From contig CBDAOI010000003.1 of the NCBI GenBank assembly GCA_965198005.1, positions 320,001 through 384,000 of the forward strand: a stretch of 64,000 nt of DNA, read 5' to 3'. The notes beneath the pieces were generated by a model. That model was not told the DNA's origin and made no database searches. It saw only the letters and a list, made by a program, of their open reading frames with translations. The position numbers were made by a program, and so were the translations under genes. The DNA is from Spirochaetia bacterium (GTDB taxonomy: Bacteria; Spirochaetota; Spirochaetia; SZUA-6; Bin103). The number at the start of each line of letters is the position of its first letter. Within the stretch, counting starts at the first letter, position 1. Positions 7,761 through 30,108 of this stretch are shown piece after piece.

Positions 7761-8775
7761 TCAGGGCTGACCAACTCCGCGGCGGCGGGACTTGGCGCCC
7801 CCGTAGCGGCCGGCGGTGCCGCGCAAGCGCGGGTCGAGCAGGTCGCGGACCGCGTCGCCGAACATGTTGAGACAGTACACCGTCACCGTCAGGAACAGTC
7901 CGGGCCACAGTGCCAGCCGCGGCGCCAGCTCCATGTACCTCCGCCCCTCGCGGCTGAGCATGCCACCCCAGCTCGGCACGTTCACCGGCAGCCCGAAACC
8001 GAGAAAGCTCAAGCTGGCCTCGGCGATGATCACGCCGCCGACGTTGATGGTGAAGATCACGATCAGCGGCGCGGTGATGTTGGGCAGCACGTGGCGCACC
8101 AGGGTCCAGCGCCGGCGCGCGCCAACCGCCTCCGCCGCCTGGAAGTACATGTTCTCCTTGACGCCGAACACCGCGCCGCGCACCACCCGCGACGCCGGGA
8201 TGCCGCCGGTGACGCCGAGCACCACGATCACCGTGACGATGCTGCGATCGACGAACGACATGATGGTGAGCAGCAGCAGCAATCCCGGGAACGACATCCA
8301 GGCATCGACGAAGCGCTGGGTGTAGACGTCGACCCTGCCGCCGATTAAGCCGGTGGTGCCGCCAACCAGCAGCGCCACGATGGTTGTTCAGCACGGTCGC
8401 CGTCAGCCCCACCAGCAGCGACACCTGGGCGCCCTTGAGGATCCGCGCCAGCACGTCGCGGCCGGCGTGATCGGTGCCGAGCGGGTGCTCGGCCGAGGGC
8501 GCCTGCAAGCGGTCCTGCACGCGGCCGATGTCGTACACGTGCGGTGTCAGCCGCTCGGCAAAGATGGCGACGAAGATCAGCCCCAACAGGACGACGCCGG
8601 CCGCGGCTCCCAGCGGCTGCTGCCGCAGCAGTCGACGGAAGAAGTCGGCCACCGGTCGGCGCCGGCCGTTGCGCCGGCCGCCGCCCGCGTCACGCGCCGC
8701 CTCACCCACCGGAGCGCCGCCCGCGTCGACGGCGAGCGGCGCATTCGGTGCATTCCGCGCATTCGGCTCACTCAT
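7761..8775 (-). pseudogene. peptide ABC permease DppC/OppC, frameshifted near 8385
   Basis: HPLGTDHAGRD in one frame; EAA loop, HVLPN and EASLSFLG in another. Confidence 0.75.
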
Positions 8776-9712
8776 AGCGGATCCTCGGATCCAGGTAGGC
8801 GTACGCCACGTCGGTCGCGAGGTTGATCAGCACCACCACCGAGGCGAAGAACAGATTCACGCCGGACACCACCGGATAGTCGCGAAGGTTGAGCGCGCTC
8901 AGCATCAGGCGACCGAGCCCGGGCAGATTGAAGATGGTCTCGATGATGACCGAGCCACCGGCAATGATGGGCAGCTGCAGCCCGATCAGCGTGACGACCG
9001 GGATGAGGGCGTTCTTGACGGCGTGGCGCAGCACCACCTTCCGCTCCTCCAGGCCCTTGGCCCAGGCGGTCCTCACGTAGTCCTGGCGCAGGACCTCCGG
9101 CATCATGGTGCGGGTCATGCGCATGGTGCTGGCCGCCAGGTAGGTCCCCAGGATCAGGGCCGGAAAGACGAACATGGTGAGGTTGGCCAGCGGGTCGACG
9201 TCGAAGCGGACGTGTACTATCGGAGGCGTCCAACCCCACCAGATAGCCGGGTAGATGATAACCAGCAGCGCGAGCCAGAAGTTCGGGGTCGCCAGGCCGA
9301 TGATCGCCGCCGAGCGGCCGGCGTAGTCGGCCACCGTGTACTGCCGAATCGCCGAATAGATGCCTATCGGTACCGCGATGATCAGGCCGGTCAGGATTGC
9401 CAGCAGCCCCAGCTCGAGGGTCACGCCTATCCTGGTGGCCATCATCGCCTCCACCGTGTCGCCGCTCGAGCCGGCATACAGCGATCTGCCGAGGGTGCCA
9501 CGCACGACGATGTCCCCGATCCACCGCGAGTACTGCACGTAAACGGGGACGTCGAGCCCGAGCCGCTTCTTCGCGGCAGCGATGTCGATCGCGCCGCCGC
9601 CTTCGTAGCCCATCCGGGCGACCATCACCTCGATGATGTTGCCGGGAATGAAGCGCACCGAGAGAAACACGAGGATGGTGACGACGAACAGGGTCGGGAT
9701 GACCAGCAGCAT
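8768..9712 (-). CDS. peptide ABC permease DppB/OppB, 5' end probably lost
   Basis: LGLDVPVYVQY, TPNFWL, QDYVRTAWAKGL, RDYPVV, LDPRIRY. Confidence 0.8.
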   Translation of the reverse strand: MLLVIPTLFVVTILVFLSVRFIPGNIIEVMVARMGYEGGGAIDIAAAKKRLGLDVPVYVQYSRWIGDIVVRGTLGRSLYAGSSGDTVEAMMATRIGVTLELGLLAILTGLIIAVPIGIYSAIRQYTVADYAGRSAAIIGLATPNFWLALLVIIYPAIWWGWTPPIVHVRFDVDPLANLTMFVFPALILGTYLAASTMRMTRTMMPEVLRQDYVRTAWAKGLEERKVVLRHAVKNALIPVVTLIGLQLPIIAGGSVIIETIFNLPGLGRLMLSALNLRDYPVVSGVNLFFASVVVLINLATDVAYAYLDPRIRYE

Positions 9713-9739
9713 GGCGGCGATGGCGGTTCGTGCTCCCGG

Positions 9740-10110
9740 CAAATATCGGTCGAGCTGACATCGTCGGGAACGCACAGCACCACCGGTCCGGGTTTGCCGG
9801 TGGTGGCCACGCGCAGCGCCTGGCCGAAAATGGCGTCCAGTGACCTCGGATCGGTGACGCGCACCTGCCACTTGCTGACCGGCTTGAACATGTCCATTTG
9901 ATCCAGCGCCGTCACACACGCCCACGCGACCGGTAATGCGCGCGTAGGCATCGGCCGCGTAGCCGCCGCTGCGCCCATCGCGCATCAGCACGTGCGAAAT
10001 GCGACCGGGCAACCGGCGGATGCCCTCGTAGAGAGGCAGCGTCTGACCGCCTGGGACACCGAACACCCTGTCTATGCCGCTTGCCACGAGCAAGCGGGCC
10101 AATCTTTCGC
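9740..10110 (-). pseudogene. TPP-binding (acetolactate synthase-like) N-terminal fragment
   Basis: VFGVPGGQTL, ADAYARITGRVGVC, then ATTGKPGPVVLCVPDD in a shifted frame. Confidence 0.75.
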
Positions 10111-10660
10111 CACCCCGCAGACTGGGGTCCAGCAGGTCTCTCAGCGCGTCGCCGAACATGTTGGTGCCCCAGACAACGGTGAACAGGGACAGCCCGGGCC
10201 ACAGCGCCAGCGCCGGGACCCGCTCCATGTAGCGGCGTCCTTCTCAACTCAGCATCCCGCCCCAGCTCGCGACATCGGGGGGCAGCCCAAGACCGAGGAA
10301 GGTCAGCGACGCCTCCGCAATGATCACGTCGCCTATGGTCACGGTAAAGATGACGATCATCGGCGCCATGATGTTGGGCAGCACATGGCGCAGGATGGTC
10401 CTGCCGCCGCCTGCACGTACACGTTCTCCTTGATGCGGATCACCGCACTGCGCGCGATTCTCGAACCGCTGATGCCGCCGGCAATGCCCAGCACCAGGAT
10501 GATCTGCAGCCGGCCCTGGCCGACCAGCGACATCACCGTAATCAGAATGAGCAGCCCCGGGAAGGCCATCCAGGCATCGACAAACCGTTGCACGACCATG
10601 TCGAGCTTGCCGCCGAAGAACCCGGGCGTCGCGCCGATCAGCAGCGCCACCACCAGGTTG
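10110..10660 (-). pseudogene. second DppC-type permease fragment with several frameshifts
   Basis: QRFVDAWMAFPG, HVLPNIMAP, LWPGL spread over three frames. Confidence 0.75.
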
Positions 10661-10664
10661 ATGC

Positions 10665-10934
10665 TGGTTGCAGCTCGCCCAGTGTCGGGGTCGGGATACC
10701 GAGGCAGCCAATGTGGATGAACGGCAGGATGCGCACTGCCGCCCCGTCGATGGCGGTGCGGCGGAACTCGGCGAAGTTGACGCAGCCGCAGGTGCCCGCG
10801 TCGACCGCGGTGGTGACCCCGCCGCGCAGCGCGGCGCGAGGATCGACGCCGTACAGGCTGCCGTCGATGTTTGCCGCCGGATTGATGACGTGACCTCCCC
10901 GCAGCAGCAGGGTCGGCTCGCGCAGCGTTTTCAT
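10665..10934 (-). pseudogene. amidohydrolase/dihydroorotase-like N-terminal fragment with internal deletion
   Basis: LLLRGGHVINPA...GVTTAVDAGT; HxH region missing. Confidence 0.65.
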
Positions 10935-11068
10935 GTCCGGCGAGCGTGCCAGAGAAGGCGTCGCCCCGTCGCCCCGCAAGGCACGGGATACGCAGCCGGG
11001 GGGGTGCTTACGGGCCGCCCGGATTCCGGTTGTAGATGGCCACGCGGCGAGCTAACTTTAGCACCGAC

Positions 11069-12751
11069 GTGAGCAGCGCCGTTTCCCCCTCCGACTTCAT
11101 TCGCAAGGCGATTCGCCGGGACTTGGCCGCCGGCCGCTTCGACCGGGTCCAGACGCGCTGGCCGCCGGAGCCGAACGGCTACATCGGCCTCGGCCACGCC
11201 AAGGCGATCACCCTCAACTTCGACGTCGCCCGCGAGTTCGGCGGGTTCTGCAGCCTGCGCTTCGACGACACCAACCCGGAGCGCGAGAAGCTGGAGTACG
11301 TGCAGTCGATCAAGGAGGACATCCGCTGGCTCGGCTTCGACTGGGGCGAGCACGAGTACTACGCCTCCGACTACTACGAGCGGCTGTACGAGCTGGCCGA
11401 GCAACTGGTGGAACAGGGGGACGCCTACGTCGACAGCCTGTCGGCGGAACAGATCAGCGAGTACCGCGGGGTACCCACCCGTCCCGGCCGCGAGAGCCCG
11501 GACCGCAACCGGCCGCCGGCGGAGAGCCTGGACCTGCTGCGCCGCATGCGCGCGGGCGAGTTCGCCGACGGCGCCTACGTGCTGCGCGCCCGGATCGACA
11601 TGGCCTCACCCAACCTGAACCTGCGCGATCCGGTGATGTACCGCATCCGCCGCGCCCGCCACTACCGCACCGGCGACGCCTGGTGCATCTATCCGATGTA
11701 CGACTGGGCGCACGGCCAGAGCGACTCGATCGAAGGGGTCACCCACTCGCTGTGCTCACTGGAGTTCGAGAACAACCGCCCGCTGTACGACTGGTACCTG
11801 GACAAGCTGGGGATCTTCCGCTCGCGGCAGATCGAGTTCAACCACCTCAACGTGGCCTACGCCGTGCTGCACAAGCGCATCCTGCGCCGGCTGGTGGCCG
11901 ACGGCACGGTGCGCGGCTGGGACGACCCGCGCCTGCTGACGCTGCGCGGCCTGCGCCGGCGCGGCTTTACTCCAAGCGCCATCCGCGCGTTCGTGCGCAG
12001 CGTCGGCCTCACCAAGACCACGGTGCTGATCAGCTACGCGCAACTGGAGTACTACCTGCGCCAGGAGCTGAACCGGACCGTCACCCGGGTGATGGCGGTG
12101 CTGGACCCGTTGCGGGTGGTGGTCACCAACTACCCGGAGGGGCGGAGCGAGCAGGTGGAGGTCGAGAACAACCCCGAGGACGCGGGCGCCGGCACCCGGC
12201 TGCTGCCCTTCTCGCGCGAGCTGTTCATCGAACGCAACGACTTCATGGAGCAGGCGCCGCGCAAGTTCTTCCGCCTGTCACCGGGGCGCGAGGTGCGGCT
12301 CAAGGGCGCCTACTACATTACCTGCGACCAGGTGGTGAAGGATGACGCCGGACAGGTGACCGAGCTGCGCTGCAGCTACGATCCGGGTTCGCGCGGCGGC
12401 GGCACCGCGGACGGCCGGGTGGTGCGCGGCACCCTGCACTGGGTCTCGGCCGAGCACGCCGTGAACGTGGAGGTGCGGCTGTACGATCACCTGTTCACCA
12501 CCGAGCACATGAACGAGGTGGAGCACGAGCACCCGGACCGCCACCTCAACCCCGACTCGGAGGTGATCCTGCGCGGCTGTCAGGTGGAACCGGGGCTGGC
12601 ACAGGCCCGCCCGGAGCAGCTCTTCCAGTTTCTGCGCCACGGCTACTTCGTGGTCGACAACCGCGATTCCCGCCCCGGCGCGCCGGTGTTCAACCGCGCG
12701 GTCGGCCTGCGCGACACCTGGGCCAAGCTGCAACGCGCCGCCCGGCGCTGA
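11069..12751 (+). CDS. glnS: glutamine--tRNA ligase with atypical signature motifs
   Basis: PPEPNG, RFDDTNP, IYPMYD, THSLCSLEF, GWDDPRL, anticodon beta-barrel motifs. Confidence 0.93.
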   Translation: MSSAVSPSDFIRKAIRRDLAAGRFDRVQTRWPPEPNGYIGLGHAKAITLNFDVAREFGGFCSLRFDDTNPEREKLEYVQSIKEDIRWLGFDWGEHEYYASDYYERLYELAEQLVEQGDAYVDSLSAEQISEYRGVPTRPGRESPDRNRPPAESLDLLRRMRAGEFADGAYVLRARIDMASPNLNLRDPVMYRIRRARHYRTGDAWCIYPMYDWAHGQSDSIEGVTHSLCSLEFENNRPLYDWYLDKLGIFRSRQIEFNHLNVAYAVLHKRILRRLVADGTVRGWDDPRLLTLRGLRRRGFTPSAIRAFVRSVGLTKTTVLISYAQLEYYLRQELNRTVTRVMAVLDPLRVVVTNYPEGRSEQVEVENNPEDAGAGTRLLPFSRELFIERNDFMEQAPRKFFRLSPGREVRLKGAYYITCDQVVKDDAGQVTELRCSYDPGSRGGGTADGRVVRGTLHWVSAEHAVNVEVRLYDHLFTTEHMNEVEHEHPDRHLNPDSEVILRGCQVEPGLAQARPEQLFQFLRHGYFVVDNRDSRPGAPVFNRAVGLRDTWAKLQRAARR

Positions 12752-12967: not shown

Positions 12968-13873
12968 ATGACGCGCGAGACACTGCAACAGAGACTGGAT
13001 GAACTCAACGTCTGGAAGCGGGGTGATGAGCGCGCTCCCCACAAGCCCCTGCTGCTGCTGCTTGCCATGGGACGGGCGGTACGCGGAGAGGAGCGCCTCG
13101 TGTCCTTCCGCGAGATCGAAGCGCCGCTGACCGGTCTGCTGCGACACTTCGGCCCGCCGCGCCGTGCGTATCATCCGGAATTCCCGTTCCGGTATCTGGC
13201 CACCGACGGGCTCTGGGAAGTGCCCGGAGTCGCGTCCTGGAGCAAGAAGCACTTGCGCGATCGCGGCATCGAGGGCGGTCTCCCGGAGCCGCTGTATCGG
13301 TTGCTGGCAACGGACCCGGCCAGTGCCCGGCTCGCGGCCCGCAGGCTCCTGGATGCACATTTCCCCGTTTCCATGCACCAGCACATCTTGGAGGCCGTAG
13401 GGTTGTTGGGCACCGCCGAGCAGGAGGGGAGGGCGTCCCGGCGTCTCCGCGACCCGCGCTTCCGCGAGGCGGTTCTGACCGCTTACGAGCGCCGTTGTGC
13501 GGTCTGCGACTTCGATCTGCGCCTGAAGGATGACTTGCTGGGACTGGAAGCCGCGCACATCCAATGGCACTCCCACGGCGGCCCCGATCGCGTTACCAAC
13601 GGGCTGGCGCTGTGTACCTTTCATCATGGCGCTTTCGATCGCGGAGCAATCGGATTGGAGAGGGCCACGGAGGGGGCAGGCTACCGGCTCGTAGTGTCGC
13701 GAGAGGTTCACGGAACGAGCCCGGCGGTACGCTGGCTCCTGGACTATCACGACTGCCCGATACGTCTTCCTCAGGAGGGCCTCGGGGAACCCGCAGCTCA
13801 GTACGTTGCATGGCATACCAGGCAGGTATTCCGCGCCCCGCCTCGTGGCCGGGTTCACCCGCCCGCATGCTGA
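12968..13873 (+). CDS. SBD-HNH endonuclease (phosphorothioate-DNA-dependent restriction type)
   Basis: RAPHKPLLLL and PEFPFRYLATDGLWEV; CAVC, EAAHI, NGLALC..HH..FD. Confidence 0.8.
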   Translation: MTRETLQQRLDELNVWKRGDERAPHKPLLLLLAMGRAVRGEERLVSFREIEAPLTGLLRHFGPPRRAYHPEFPFRYLATDGLWEVPGVASWSKKHLRDRGIEGGLPEPLYRLLATDPASARLAARRLLDAHFPVSMHQHILEAVGLLGTAEQEGRASRRLRDPRFREAVLTAYERRCAVCDFDLRLKDDLLGLEAAHIQWHSHGGPDRVTNGLALCTFHHGAFDRGAIGLERATEGAGYRLVVSREVHGTSPAVRWLLDYHDCPIRLPQEGLGEPAAQYVAWHTRQVFRAPPRGRVHPPAC

Positions 13874-19068: not shown

Positions 19069-20232
19069 TTACCGGGTTTCCGCCCGCGCCACCTCCGCCA
19101 GCAGCGCGTCGTAGTCTGCGCTCACGCTACGCCACGAGAACCGCTCCATCGCCGCCGCCAGGCCGGCCGGGGCCACGACCGGGGGCGCGGCCAGCAACGC
19201 GCGCAGTCGGGCGGCCAGCTCGCTCTCGTCCCGGTACAGGCAGGCGGCGTGATGGCGCGCCGGAATCACCTCCGGGTACGCCAAGCGGTGCGGCAGCAGC
19301 GGGAAGTTGCCGGCCGCTACCGCCTCCACCACGGCGATGCCGAAGTTCTCCTGGAGCGCGGTCGAGACCACCACTGCCCCCCGGCGCAGCCAATCCCAGT
19401 ACGCGGCCCGATCCGGCTCGTAGCCGTACCGAACCAGGCGCGAGCCGAGCCACTCCCGCGCCTCGATGAACTCCCGCGGCACCGCCTGGAAGTTCTCGCC
19501 CAGCAGCGCCACCCGAAACGGCACGCCCGCCGCAGCCACCCGCCGCAGCGCCGCGAACAACAGCTCCGGCTGCTTGTCGAACTCCCAGCGGTGGTTCCAG
19601 ATCACCAGGGGCGGGTCGGCCGGCGCCCCGGGTCGGGCGCCACCGGCCGGCGCCGGCGGCGGCAGCCGGCACCCCGGGTGGAGCACGCGCGCCTTGGCCG
19701 CCAGCGCAGCCGGCACCCAGCGCGGCACGTAGTCGGGCATCTGCCGCAGAAACCGGGGCAGCGCCGCGAAGAAGGAGGCGCGGTGGAACTCCGAGTTGAA
19801 CACGATCACGGTAGCGGCCAGCGCCGAGCTGACGTCGGTGAACCCGAACTGCAGGTCGACCTGCCCGCCCGGCGGCACCGGGTAGCTGAGCTGGTTCTCG
19901 TGCAGGTAGAGCACGATCGGCGGGCAGCGCACCCCCCACAGCGCCTTGAGGTCGGCGGCACTCATCAGGTCGGAGAGCAGCAGGATGTCATACCGCTCGG
20001 GGCGCGTGACGGTGTGCGCGAAGTGGAGGGCGGCGCCGCGCATGCGCCACTTCCAGAACCGCGCCGGCAGCGTGCGCAGCTCGAGCCGGTGGCGCGAGTG
20101 CGCCACCAGGCCGTCGGCGAACGCACGGTGCGAGCCGCCGTAGAACGGCTCCAGAAACAGCACCCGCAGTTGGTCGTCGTCCCGGCGGCCCGACCCGCAG
20201 CCCGAGCTGCGCGCGCGTTGCCCCACCGGCAA
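19069..20232 (-). CDS. DUF3524/GTDC1-like GT-B glycosyltransferase
   Basis: LEPFYGGSH, LPARFWKWRMRG, HENQL.YP, WNHRWEFDK, ENFGIAVVEA. Confidence 0.88.
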   Translation of the reverse strand: MPVGQRARSSGCGSGRRDDDQLRVLFLEPFYGGSHRAFADGLVAHSRHRLELRTLPARFWKWRMRGAALHFAHTVTRPERYDILLLSDLMSAADLKALWGVRCPPIVLYLHENQLSYPVPPGGQVDLQFGFTDVSSALAATVIVFNSEFHRASFFAALPRFLRQMPDYVPRWVPAALAAKARVLHPGCRLPPPAPAGGARPGAPADPPLVIWNHRWEFDKQPELLFAALRRVAAAGVPFRVALLGENFQAVPREFIEAREWLGSRLVRYGYEPDRAAYWDWLRRGAVVVSTALQENFGIAVVEAVAAGNFPLLPHRLAYPEVIPARHHAACLYRDESELAARLRALLAAPPVVAPAGLAAAMERFSWRSVSADYDALLAEVARAETR

Positions 20233-20332: not shown

Positions 20333-21724
20333 CTACGGGCGCACGCGCTTGCGGTCGCGCGGGAACAGGGCCGCCTGCTTGACGCTGGCCAGGCCGAGGA
20401 TGGTCTGCGTGAGCCGTTCCAGGCCGATCGCGAAGCCGCCGTGGGGAGGACAGCCGTAGCGGAACACCGACAGGTAGTCGGTCATCGACGCCGGGTCCAG
20501 GCCGAACCGCCGGATGCTCTCCACCAGCGCGACGTAGTCGTTGATCCGGCGGCTGCCGGAGGTAAGTTCCTGGCCGCGATACAGCAGGTCGAACGACATC
20601 GTCCGGTTGTCGTCCGCCGGATAGGTATAGAAAGGGCGCTTGCGCCGCGGATAAGCGTACACGAACACCGCGCCGATGCCGTGTTCGGCGGCCGCCCAGT
20701 CGCACAACAGGCGCTCCGCTTCCGGATTGATCTCGTACACCCGCGCGCGGCCGCTCCCGGCGGCGGCCACCGCCCGCGCCTCGTCGTAGCTCAGGCGCGG
20801 AATTGCCGCCACCTGCGCCGCGCTCGGCACCTGCGCGTCCCACTGCGCCAGGATGGCGGCCGCGTCCCGTTCCAGCCCGGTGAAGATGGTGGTCAGCAAC
20901 CGCTGCTCCAGGTCGATCAGATCATGCTCGCTGTCGATGTACGCCAGTTCCACGTCCAGCGACACGTACTCGTTGATGTGGCGCGGCGTGTCGTGCTTCT
21001 CGGCCCGATAGGCCATGCCGATCTCGAACACCCGCTCCAGGCCCGCCGCCACCAGCGCCTGCTTGTAGAGCTGCGGCGACTGCGCCAGGTACACGGTGCG
21101 GTCGAAGTACTCCACGGCGAACAGCCCGGTACCCCCTTCGGTGCCGCTGCCGATCAGCTTCGACGACTTGATCTCCGTGAACCCTTCCGCCCGCAGGTGC
21201 TCGGCGAACAGCCGCACGATCTCCGCCTGCAGGCGGAAGATGGCGAGCGTCTTGGGGTTGCGCAGGCTCACCATGCGGTGCTCCAGCAGGGCCTCGAGGC
21301 TGAGCTGCGCCGGGTCCTGGTTCACTGCCAGCGGCAGGTCGGGCGCCGCCGCCGAGATTACCCGGCACGCCTCTGCCTGGACCTCGAAGCCGCCCGGGGC
21401 CTTGCGGTTGGCCGCCACTCGGCCGCTGATTTCCACCACCGACTCCAGCGCGACCGGCCGCCCGGCGGCGTCCGCCGGCGCCGCGCCGAACACCGTCTGG
21501 CACAACCCGGAGCGGTCGCGCAGGATCAGAAAGCAGACCCGCCCCAGGTCGCGCAGCCGGTGCACCCAGCCGCGCAGCCGCACCGTGTCGCCGACGTGCG
21601 CCGCGAGGCCGGCGGCCAGCACGCGGCCGGCGCCGGGTGCGCGTGCGTCCGGCTGGGGTCCGGGTGCTGCCGGTGCGTTACCGTCGGCCGTGCGCCGTGT
21701 CCCGGACTGCCCGCGCCGGCTCAT
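20333..21724 (-). CDS. aspS: non-discriminating archaeal-type aspartate--tRNA(Asp/Asn) ligase
   Basis: GWVH and KAPGG (ND-type residues), YLAQSPQLYKQ, PPHGGFAIGLER. Confidence 0.92.
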   Translation of the reverse strand: MSRRGQSGTRRTADGNAPAAPGPQPDARAPGAGRVLAAGLAAHVGDTVRLRGWVHRLRDLGRVCFLILRDRSGLCQTVFGAAPADAAGRPVALESVVEISGRVAANRKAPGGFEVQAEACRVISAAAPDLPLAVNQDPAQLSLEALLEHRMVSLRNPKTLAIFRLQAEIVRLFAEHLRAEGFTEIKSSKLIGSGTEGGTGLFAVEYFDRTVYLAQSPQLYKQALVAAGLERVFEIGMAYRAEKHDTPRHINEYVSLDVELAYIDSEHDLIDLEQRLLTTIFTGLERDAAAILAQWDAQVPSAAQVAAIPRLSYDEARAVAAAGSGRARVYEINPEAERLLCDWAAAEHGIGAVFVYAYPRRKRPFYTYPADDNRTMSFDLLYRGQELTSGSRRINDYVALVESIRRFGLDPASMTDYLSVFRYGCPPHGGFAIGLERLTQTILGLASVKQAALFPRDRKRVRP

Positions 21725-23207
21725 CCGTCATCCCGCCGGGCCGCTGCCGGGTCATCGGCGCCCGCGGGCGCGGCGGCGTACAGCGCCTCGATCAGCGCGT
21801 GCACCTGGTCCGGCCGGGCGCGGCCGCCGGTGCGCCGCATCATCTGCCCGACCAGGAACCCCACCGGCTTGCGGTCACGCGCCGCGATCTGCTGCTGCAC
21901 CCGCGGGTTGTCCGCCAGCACCTGCTGCAGGATCGGCTGCAGCTCGGCGCCGGCGGTGATCTGGCTCAGGCCGTCCTCGGCCACCACCGCGCGCGGGTCG
22001 CGGCCGTCGCCGATCACCACCGCCAGCACCTGCTTGGCCAGCTTGCCGCTGACCGTGCCCTCGGCCAGCAGGCGCAGCAGCTCCACCAGCCGCCGCGGGG
22101 TGAGGTGGCTGGCCTCCAGCGTCTCCCGGCGCCGGTTGAGGTGCTTGCGCACGTCCGCGGCCAGCCAGCGCGCGGCCAGCGACGGGTCGGCCCCGGCGGC
22201 CACCGTCTGCTCGAAGAACGCGGCGGTGGCGGGCTCGTCGGTGAGGAAGGCCGCCTGCTCCAGGCTCAGGCCGTGCGCCTGCCGCAGCCGGTCGCGCCGG
22301 GCCAGCGGCAGCTCCACCAGCCGCTCCTCGACCGCCGCGAAGAAAGCGCGGTCGGGCCGGAACGGCGGCAGATCCGGTTCCGGAAAGTAGCGGTAGTCGT
22401 CCTCGCTCTCCTTGACCCGCATCGGCTCGGTGCAGTCGCGGTTCTCGTTCCACAGCCGGGTCTCCACAATCACCTCGCCGCCACGGGCGAGCAGCGCGGT
22501 CTGCCGTTCGATCTCGAAGTCGAGGGCGTTGCGGACGAACTTGAACGAGTTGAGATTCTTGATCTCCACCTTGCTGCCGAGGCCGAGGCCGCTGCGGTTC
22601 ACCGACACGTTGGCGTCGCAGCGCAACGACCCCTGCTCCATGTTGCCGTCGCACACCCCCAGGAACCGCACCATCCGGCGGAACTGCTCCAGGAACTGCT
22701 CGGCCGCCCGGCCGCCGGTCAGGTCCGGCTGGGTGACCACCTCGACCAGCGGGGTGCCGGTGCGGTTGTAGTCGAGCAGCGAGACGTCGCCCGCGTGGAT
22801 CATCTTGCCGGCGTCCTCTTCGAGGTGGACCTCGCGGATGCTCACGGTGTCGGCGACGCCGTCGATCTCCGCCCGGAAGCGGCCGGCGCTCCCGATCGGG
22901 GCCCCGTACTGCGAGATCTGATAGTTCTTGGGCAGATCCGGGTAGAAATAATTCTTGCGTTCGAACACCGTGCGGTCGCTCAGGGTGCACTCCAGCGCGC
23001 GCGCCAGCACGTACGCCTTGAGCACCGCCTCCTCGTTCAGCGCGGGCAAGATCCCGGGATACCCCAGGCACACCGGGCAGACATTCTCGTTGGGCCGGTC
23101 GCCGAACGCGTTGCGGCAGTCGCAGAACACCTTGGACGCGGTGATGAGCTGGACGTGAATCTCCAATCCGACGAACCCCCGGTATCCGTTTTCGTTCGTC
23201 TCTCGGC

Positions 23208-23217
<10 letters not shown>
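21721..23217 (-). CDS. gatB: Asp/Glu-tRNA amidotransferase subunit B
   Basis: GLEIHVQL, RKNYFYPDLPK, HLEEDAGK, YRYFPEPDL. Confidence 0.97.
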
Positions 23218-24701
<1,484 letters not shown>

Positions 24702-24855
24702 GAACTGCTCCTCGGCCGGGCGCGCCGCCGCAAGCGCGCAGGCACGACGGTGCGCGGCGCATTGGCAGCGCACCCGGGCAGCAGGTGGCGCGCGTCCGGC
24801 ATGGACTGCCGCACGGACAGTGCCCGGCGGGCGACATTGTCGGGTTTGGTGTACA

Positions 24856-25218
24856 CTAGAGAACGTTGGGGACGCTGAAGTGGTAGTCTTCGCGCTCGGG
24901 AGCGGCTGCCAGCAGCCGCGCGGAGTCGGCGCCGGACCAGCGCTCGGCCGCGGGCGTGACCCGGTCCGGCCGGAGCCGGTTGCGCGCCTGCAGGGCATGG
25001 GTCGTCGGCTCCACGCCGCCGACGTCCAGGGTCGCCATCACGTCGAAGTACCGGAGGATCTGCTGCACCCCGGCGCGCAGGCGCTCGCGTTCGGCGCCGG
25101 TCAGGCGCAACCGCGCCATCTCGGCGGTGGTCGCCAACTCCGCGTCGCTCAGGGCGATGCCCGCGGAATCTCCGCCGCCTCCGCTGCTCCCGCCGCCGGC
25201 CACAGTGTCCTGCTCCAT
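24856..25218 (-). CDS. gatC: amidotransferase subunit C
   Basis: MARLRL...ILRYF...VEPT...LRPD...VPNVL; position before gatA. Confidence 0.9.
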   Translation of the reverse strand: MEQDTVAGGGSSGGGGDSAGIALSDAELATTAEMARLRLTGAERERLRAGVQQILRYFDVMATLDVGGVEPTTHALQARNRLRPDRVTPAAERWSGADSARLLAAAPEREDYHFSVPNVL

Positions 25219-25339
25219 GGGAATCCCGGTAAGCATGGGTGCTTGTGCGGGGACGTGTCAAGCAATTATCGGGCCAAACGGGCCAGATTTGACCCTGCAG
25301 GGCGGTAGCCGTATAGTTTAAGTGAGTTGCGCCCGCAAC

Positions 25340-29572: not shown

Positions 29573-29575
29573 TTG

Positions 29576-29663
29576 CGGAGAGAGTGGGATTCGAACCCAC
29601 GGTACCCGGTAAGAGCACACACGCTTTCCAAGCGTGCACCTTCGGCCGCTCGGTCATCTCTCC
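29576..29663 (-). tRNA. tRNA-Ser(GGA)
   Basis: cloverleaf, loop CTTGGAA, long variable arm. Confidence 0.92.
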
Positions 29664-29687
29664 CTGCCCACGCCGGGCTCTGGGCTG

Positions 29688-29777
29688 CGGAGAGAGTGGG
29701 ATTCGAACCCACGGAGCCAGCTTGCGCGGCTCAACGGATTTCGAGTCCGCCCGATTCGACCGCTCTCGCATCTCTCC
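29688..29777 (-). tRNA. tRNA-Ser(CGA)
   Basis: loop CTCGAAA, long variable arm. Confidence 0.92.
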
Positions 29778-29820
29778 GTACCCCGGCGGCTCGCGTCCAT
29801 CCGCGTCCGCCGGTGGCTTG

Positions 29821-29895
29821 CGTGCCCAAGAGGACTCGAACCTCCGACCTCTAGATCCGCAATCTAACGCTCTATCCAGACTGAGCTATGGGCAC
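29821..29895 (-). tRNA. tRNA-Arg(GCG)
   Basis: stem TTAGA/TCTAG, loop TTGCGGA. Confidence 0.9.
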
Positions 29896-29908
29896 AGGTG
29901 AACTGGTT

Positions 29909-29995
<87 letters not shown>

Positions 29996-30024
29996 CGGCT
30001 GCACGGCGGCCGGCGCCCGCGTCG

Positions 30025-30108
30025 CGGAGAGGGTGGGATTCGAACCCACGGAGCCAACGACTCAGCGGTTTTCAAGACCGCCTCCTTCGACCACTCGGAC
30101 ACCTCTCC
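30025..30108 (-). tRNA. tRNA-Ser(TGA)
   Basis: loop CTTGAAA. Confidence 0.92.

Follow-up and report, generated by a model that had tools for sequence, protein, structure and literature searches.

A rare, conserved active-site variant of glutaminyl-tRNA synthetase with altered HIGH and KMSKS-type loops in a high-GC spirochaete lineage

The stretch of DNA considered here (the window) comprises 64,000 nt of contig CBDAOI010000003.1 (positions 320,001 to 384,000, forward strand) of a Spirochaetia bacterium, GenBank assembly GCA_965198005.1, a genome that is 90% complete and present in four contigs. It carries a glnS gene specifying a glutaminyl-tRNA synthetase (GlnRS) in which the first histidine of HIGH, one of the two class I signature motifs, is replaced by glycine, and in which the KMSKS-type loop and several nearby positions are also changed (Table 1). 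The G+C content of the window is 67%, and that of third codon positions in glnS (GC3) is 0.94, a value typical for the genes of the window. An in-frame GTG at nt 11069, codon 12 of the open frame, is an alternative and equally possible start, as residues 1–17 are of low confidence in the AlphaFold model.

All parts of a bacterial GlnRS are present. The Pfam matches (PF00749, tRNA-synt_1c; PF03950, tRNA-synt_1c_C; PF20974, tRNA-synt_1c_C2) account for a catalytic Rossmann domain and two beta-barrel anticodon-binding domains, and the scores against the NCBIfam models TIGR00440 (glnS, 649.5 bits, cut-off 425.8) and NF011291 (812.7 bits, cut-off 681) lie above the curated thresholds. There is no YqeY tail, the match to the 769-position fusion model spanning positions 11–562. 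Among solved structures, the closest relatives are the GlnRS of Pseudomonas aeruginosa (5bnz, E = 1.7e-199) and Escherichia coli (E = 1.9e-185). The AlphaFold2 model (predicted local distance difference test (pLDDT) 91.7, predicted template modelling score (pTM) 0.87) superimposes on the E. coli GlnRS-tRNA-ATP complex (4jyz_A) with a template modelling (TM) score of 0.98 and a root-mean-square deviation of 1.2 Å, and Foldseek gives identities of 53% to 5bnz_A and 50% to 4jyz_A. Judged by its sequence, the protein is an unambiguous member of the GlnRS family that deviates in the HIGH signature. Compared with the solved bacterial enzymes (E. coli 1gtr and 4jyz, P. aeruginosa 5bnz, Deinococcus radiodurans 2hz7, Thermus thermophilus 5zdk), it is of the same length class, domain order and fold, and has an identical glutamine pocket, second HIGH histidine and loop lysine. 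It differs from them at the first HIGH His, Arg260, Ser269, Phe31, Thr266 and Pro291 (E. coli numbering), which are here Gly, His, His, Trp, Ala and Leu, respectively.

Table 1. Coordinates of glnS, of its altered active-site positions and of the tRNA-dependent amidation genes in the window.
Feature	Position (nt)	Strand	Description	Basis
glnS	11036..12751	+	glutaminyl-tRNA synthetase, 571 aa	open frame; Pfam, NCBIfam and PDB matches
W42 (E. coli F31)	11159..11161	+	Phe replaced by Trp, in the strand that runs into HIGH	common to clades A and B
I50-G51-L52-G53-H54	11183..11197	+	for L-H-I-G-H; first HIGH His to Gly, second His retained	alignments, codons
N269-H270 (E. coli S259-R260)	11840..11845	+	F(A/S)RLN to FNHLN; Arg to His	EFNHLN at 11834-11851
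A276 (E. coli T266)	11861..11863	+	Thr replaced by Ala, immediately ahead of the KMSKS-type loop	alignment
L278-H279-K280-R281	11867..11878	+	for M-S-K-R; Ser to His, catalytic Lys retained	DNA, alignment
L301 (E. coli P291)	11936..11938	+	Pro replaced by Leu, in the segment WDDPR(M/L)P, which follows the loop	common to clades A and B
gatCAB and non-discriminating AspRS	20333..25236	-	tRNA-dependent amidation genes	NF003483 aspartate--tRNA(Asn) ligase, 493.9 bits (cut-off 353)
gatC-gatA-gatB	21721-25236	-		GatB TIGR00133, 515.9 bits; Amidase/GatA and GatC Pfam matches

Residue equivalences were taken from HMMER alignments to E. coli GlnRS chains (G51 = H40, L52 = I41, N269 = S259, H270 = R260, L278 = M268, H279 = S269, K280 = K270, I282 = K272). 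The original prediction, made from the letters of this DNA, had reported the motifs GLGH (11186-11197), EFNHLN and LHKR (11867-11878), together with an intact reading frame and the glutamine-pocket motifs YPMYD and CSLEF; the DNA letters are exactly as claimed, both pocket motifs are found and no stop interrupts the frame. The four codons at 11186-11197 are GGC CTC GGC CAC, encoding G51 to H54, and the protein has G-L-G-H where the HIGH signature is H-[ILV]-G-H. The KMSKS-type loop reads V-L-H-K-R instead of the canonical V-M-S-K-R, and qualifies as such a loop with its catalytic lysine in place. The H279 codon is CAC; the same site is GGC (Gly) in the sister genus described below and AGC (Ser) in canonical sequences. 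Both class I signature loops line the ATP phosphates, and the roles that we give to His40, Arg260 and Ser269 at the ATP site are presumed from the structural literature. According to PMC1865053, ten residues of E. coli GlnRS contact ATP.

The prediction had also stated that GlnRS normally carries the canonical forms of these motifs, and this was borne out in 80 diverse GlnRS sequences from other phyla, a comparator set from which close relatives were left out: the first HIGH His is present in 80/80, the Arg of F(A/D)RL in 78/80 and the loop Ser in 79/80. A larger set of 230 distinct sequences was assembled from relatives, the 80 comparators and 120 database hits. In this set, all 186 sequences outside the variant clades have the first HIGH His. 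The signature IG(I/L)GH + FNHLN + (V/I)LHKR is carried by 23 distinct sequences, which come from independent assemblies, and is found in the genome studied here and in nine of ten others of the same genus, the tenth (G002) having PNIGH/FNHLY/TFGKR. Among the signature sequences, the Leu of GLGH is confined to the genome studied here; the remaining 22 have GIGH. Metagenomic data were scanned with two patterns. The stricter of these, FPPEPNG[YF]xGxGHAK, returned no stretches, and PPEPxG[YF]xGxGH returned 21, of which one was a GlnRS (clade A, 89% identical) and 20 were unrelated high-GC frames. Within these two scans, which cover Gly with exact flanks only, no independent GlnRS lineage with the His-to-Gly change was seen outside the clade; the collection is not exhaustive, as a clade B protein sourced from the Joint Genome Institute (P0013) should fit the second pattern and was not returned. 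A limited literature search on variants of the first HIGH histidine gave no report of this form of GlnRS. The protein is a rare, conserved and genuine active-site variant of a known housekeeping enzyme, and not a new kind of system.

A FastTree phylogeny of the 230 sequences places all 44 that have Asn-His at positions 259-260 in one clade with the shape ((A,B),C), and the support values are 0.998 for A+B and 1.0 for C. Clade A (23 sequences, including this genome) has the signature given above. Clade B (six sequences) has P(N/H/G)IGH + FNHLY + TF(G/S)KR, and clade C (15 sequences), the sister genus, has LH(I/V)GH + YNHLY + MTGKR. The nearest outgroups have IHIGH + YN(N/K)LN + LLSKR (eight sequences) and LHIGH + FAPLN + VMSKR (seven sequences). 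The first HIGH residue shows three states (G, N, H) in A+B and is His in 15/15 sequences of C. At the codon level, clade C has CAC (His) in HIGH and GGC (Gly) in the loop, while ten clade A genes all have GGC (Gly) in HIGH and CAC (His) in the loop. The two genera thus show a reciprocal His/Gly exchange, for which two substitutions are needed at each site. With all carriers in one monophyletic clade, the swap is a single evolutionary event. Residue 260 is Arg in 167 of the 230 sequences, His in 44, Pro in ten, Asn in seven and Lys in two; the His is found in all sequences of A+B+C, and Pro, Asn or Lys in 19 near-outgroup sequences. Since the nearest outgroups are also without Arg260, its loss predates the swap and took place in a wider spirochaete-associated clade of 63/230 sequences. 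FNHL is therefore not part of the same step as the other two motif changes.

Outside the signature motifs the enzyme is little altered. Of 219 positions with at least 90% conservation among the 186 other GlnRS, clade A keeps 208, and the 11 that are changed are 42 (F>W), 50 (L>I), 51 (H>G), 114, 125, 168, 276 (T>A), 279 (S>H), 300, 301 (P>L) and 407. Position 42 is F in 166/167 GlnRS that have Arg260, and W in 23/23 sequences of clade A and 6/6 of clade B. Position 276 is T in 97% of the 186 others, and A in 87% of clade A, 6/6 of clade B and 0/186 others; position 301 is P in 98% of the 186, and L in 96% of clade A, 6/6 of clade B and again 0/186. An alignment of 60 sequences showed the second HIGH His (H54), Gly53, K280 and R281 to be invariant (60/60 for G53, K280 and R281), as are R41, E45, D77, Y222, H226, C240 and Q265. 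The E. coli equivalents of the latter group are R30, E34, D66, Y211, H215, C229 and Q255, and we take R30, D66, Y211, C229 and Q255 to be residues of the glutamine pocket.

A profile search (TIGR00440) of the genome found one glnS, and there is also one gltX. No second, canonical glnS, which the original prediction had advised looking for, was found in this genome by that profile or in 40 relatives by protein search, the weak second matches being GluRS. Four single-contig genomes of the genus have one GlnRS match each, and one genome (G003, 8% contamination) has two glnS copies that are 92.5% identical and both variant. All 23 of the other family genomes searched carry a GlnRS without stops. 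The ratio of nonsynonymous to synonymous substitution rates (dN/dS, Nei-Gojobori) has a median of 0.18 in clade A (0.12-0.24; 45 pairs of 10 genes) and 0.21 in the sister genus with canonical HIGH (0.10-0.29; 66 pairs of 12 genes), both medians being inflated by strong GC3 bias. The variant glnS is under purifying selection, with no relaxation relative to the sister genus.

We consider that the gene specifies a working housekeeping GlnRS, which charges tRNA-Gln with glutamine in the usual two-step class I reaction, and that the site for ATP and pyrophosphate was remodelled step by step within a single spirochaete lineage of high GC, an explanation to which we assign a probability of about 0.7. 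The tree gives the order of the changes: Arg260 (E. coli numbering) was lost first, in the wider clade; Asn259-His260 then arose in the family, with the loop Ser269 changing to Gly; the ancestor of A and B acquired F31W, T266A and P291L, with the first HIGH position freed to vary (G, N, H); and in clade A both Gly40 and His269 became fixed. Compared with the sister genus, this last step amounts to His and Gly being traded between the two signature loops on either side of the ATP phosphates. The earlier lineage changes may have made the first HIGH His dispensable, and the new loop His may supply the lost phosphate contact. The variant enzyme is predicted from its sequence to be catalytically competent, and we infer that phosphate binding in the transition state, normally a task of the first HIGH His, has in part passed to His279, perhaps assisted by His270.

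Several observations weigh against this explanation. Support for the node that unites A, B and C is weak (0.449). In four of the six clade B sequences both sites lack a His, the first HIGH position being occupied by Asn or Gly and the loop position by Gly or Ser. A relocated imidazole is therefore not obligatory, and His279 may be incidental. A canonical sequence, P0114, combines LHIGH with LLHKR, that is, it has the loop His without loss of the HIGH His. The distribution of GlnRS among 17 genomes of the same order is patchy, being intact in ten, fragmented in one and missing from six. The GluRS residue aligned to Arg358 of T. thermophilus was considered because the literature uses this Arg to recognise a discriminating GluRS; it is Arg in this genome and in 19/19 relatives aligned, a count that leaves out G031 and includes 6/6 same-order genomes that lack GlnRS, and was rejected as a marker in this order for the latter reason.

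The original prediction had interpreted the loss of the first His, along with a new His in the KMSKS loop, as a compensatory swap. One part of this stands, as the loss of the first His goes with the loop His (LHKR is present in 23/23 sequences with IG(I/L)GH) and the codons are exchanged reciprocally. The other part, compensation itself, is plausible but unproven on the sequences at hand: it can only be inferred because there is a single event, clade B includes sequences with neither His, and P0114 has both, and the co-variation amounts to one event in one monophyletic clade, too few for statistics. The more specific proposal, that the transition-state imidazole moved from HIGH to the KMSKS loop, with the loss of Arg260 and the changes F31W, T266A and P291L preparing the way, is tentative, and we regard it as possible but doubtful. 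If it were true, the two class I signature motifs would be functionally interchangeable in nature, and the swap might alter sensitivity to adenylate-mimic inhibitors. Forms of ArgRS without the KMSKS lysine are reported (Sekine et al. 2001) to use a lysine beside HIGH. ArgRS would likewise be a case in which a catalytic side chain is handed between the two signature loops, but in the opposite direction (a KMSKS function passing to the HIGH region), with Lys rather than His and in another enzyme family.

The stepwise rebuilding of a working enzyme has to be set against redundancy of GlnRS. If a non-discriminating GluRS and GatCAB made Gln-tRNA-Gln, the ATP site of GlnRS could have drifted, and the protein could be weakened or have a moonlighting role (tRNA binding, regulation). 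The His45Gly mutant of TyrRS has the same substitution at the same signature position; engineered by Leatherbarrow, Fersht and Winter (1985), it is reported to show a large loss of transition-state stabilisation, with activation about 200-fold lower, which counts in favour of redundancy. It is, however, a laboratory mutant, whereas the change here is natural, genus-wide and accompanied by further active-site changes. GatCAB is present in the genome, and the absence of GlnRS from six of the 17 same-order genomes, with a fragmented gene in another, indicates that the indirect route works in the order. With the Arg358 equivalent failing to separate GlnRS-lacking from GlnRS-bearing genomes, and thus uninformative, and with GlnRS patchy in the order, GluRS and GatCAB could still serve as a back-up of GlnRS. 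The best solved match of the GluRS of this genome is the Borrelia burgdorferi enzyme. PMC3927822 cautions that markers of the Arg358 type behave in a phylum-specific manner, and argues that some bacterial GlnRS coexisting with GatCAB may be non-functional. Against redundancy, dN/dS is not above that of the sister genus with canonical HIGH, only 11 of the 219 conserved positions are changed, no variation is seen in the glutamine pocket, the second His or the loop Lys, and glnS is kept in all 23 of the other family genomes searched.

The gene content around GatCAB also bears on redundancy. The operon partner of gatCAB is an Asp-tRNA(Asn) ligase: a non-discriminating AspRS lies directly after gatCAB, in one operon with it, and the genome also has AsnRS and a bacterial-type AspRS. 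In this 90%-complete genome no AsnA was found, nor any AsnB above cut-off. Because of this operon and the lack of a detected asparagine synthetase, retention of GatCAB is explained without Gln-tRNA synthesis. As in Thermus and Deinococcus, GlnRS stands alongside GatCAB, a non-discriminating AspRS and AsnRS, and the genome, which is labelled as a spirochaete and is high in GC, has a tRNA-dependent asparagine route like theirs. In this arrangement GatCAB serves asparagine formation. According to PMC3927822, GlnRS is functional and GluRS is discriminating in those two genera. A tRNA-Gln(UUG) is present (G000:C3:1103163-1103235), with U1-A72, G2-C71, G3-C70 and G73; tRNA-Gln(CUG) was not found among the 50 tRNAs detected, despite the high GC3 of glnS, and may be unassembled. 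Taken together, we judge redundancy of GlnRS to be unlikely. In two other genomes of the order the GlnRS match is split into pieces in different frames (G034:C13:108573-110209 and G026:C188:1353-2617); GlnRS is either being lost or poorly assembled in parts of the order.

A further reading, put forward in the original prediction, is inhibitor resistance, in which the remodelled HIGH/KMSKS site would lower affinity for a natural aminoacyl-adenylate mimic, as in type 2 IleRS with mupirocin. In type 2 IleRS the first and third HIGH positions are reportedly exchanged, which relocates the His within the motif. This enzyme of mupirocin hyper-resistance (PMC10485003) offers a class I precedent, a natural synthetase with an altered HIGH motif, and in the GlnRS described here the changes are likewise concentrated on the loops of the ATP site. 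The two differ in that type 2 IleRS is a second, resistance-conferring copy that moves its His within HIGH, whereas the variant GlnRS is a sole copy without inhibitor context and has its new His in the KMSKS-type loop; the third HIGH position is still Gly (Gly53) and not His, and there is no extra copy beside a sensitive one. There is no sensitive/resistant gene pair in any case seen, as glnS is the sole copy here and both copies in G003 are variant. No biosynthetic or transport genes of an inhibitor type lie beside glnS, its neighbours being unrelated housekeeping or defence genes. We know of no natural inhibitor of GlnRS (without a systematic search), and this too counts against resistance. 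Resistance is accordingly a very improbable explanation, and there is no evident link of the variant to resistance or to a new function.

Decay of the gene or a sequencing artefact, suggested by the missing key catalytic His, can be ruled out for practical purposes: the frame is intact, the GC3 value is typical of genes here, the same motifs are shared by 23 distinct, independently assembled sequences and selection is purifying.

The stepwise rebuilding of a working GlnRS is of interest for several reasons. Glycine replaces the first HIGH His in the only GlnRS of the genus, in a gene still under normal purifying selection. The intermediates in sister clades, some with an unaltered HIGH and others with Asn, Gly or His at that site, form a natural series on how HIGH and KMSKS share transition-state stabilisation, and also illustrate the rebuilding of essential active sites without loss of function. 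The variant also offers a comparison with the altered HIGH of the mupirocin-resistant type 2 IleRS.

Genes near glnS encode a fragment of an amidohydrolase, a restriction endonuclease for phosphorothioate DNA, a Nudix hydrolase and a single-stranded DNA-binding protein (SSB). The endonuclease, of the SBD-HNH type that binds phosphorothioated DNA (nt 12968-13873, plus strand; NF045808, 307.2 bits), is directly downstream of glnS. Upstream, the region at nt 7761-10979 (minus strand) has fragmentary-looking frames that may be pseudogenes or frameshifts. They include a 112-aa piece whose match to an amidohydrolase model of 383 positions is confined to 79-129, and a 485-aa frame that fuses the N-terminal domain of a thiamine pyrophosphate (TPP) enzyme to an ATP-binding cassette (ABC) permease domain. 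At nt 19069-20232 (minus strand), 100 bp downstream of the non-discriminating AspRS, is a glycosyltransferase gene with the N-terminal domain of tRNA-queuosine alpha-mannosyltransferase (QTMAN; PF12038, 199.6 bits), and a second copy, matching in two pieces, is carried by contig C4. A tie of this QTMAN-like gene to the operon of non-discriminating AspRS and GatCAB was considered and rejected, the genes being far apart in the three single-contig genomes of the genus that were compared (G001, G007 and G010), and the adjacency looks incidental. Finally, four tRNA-Ser genes (GGA, CGA, GCU, UGA) and a tRNA-Arg(GCG) gene are tightly clustered at nt 29575-30108 (minus strand), adjoining dnaX, recR and parAB.

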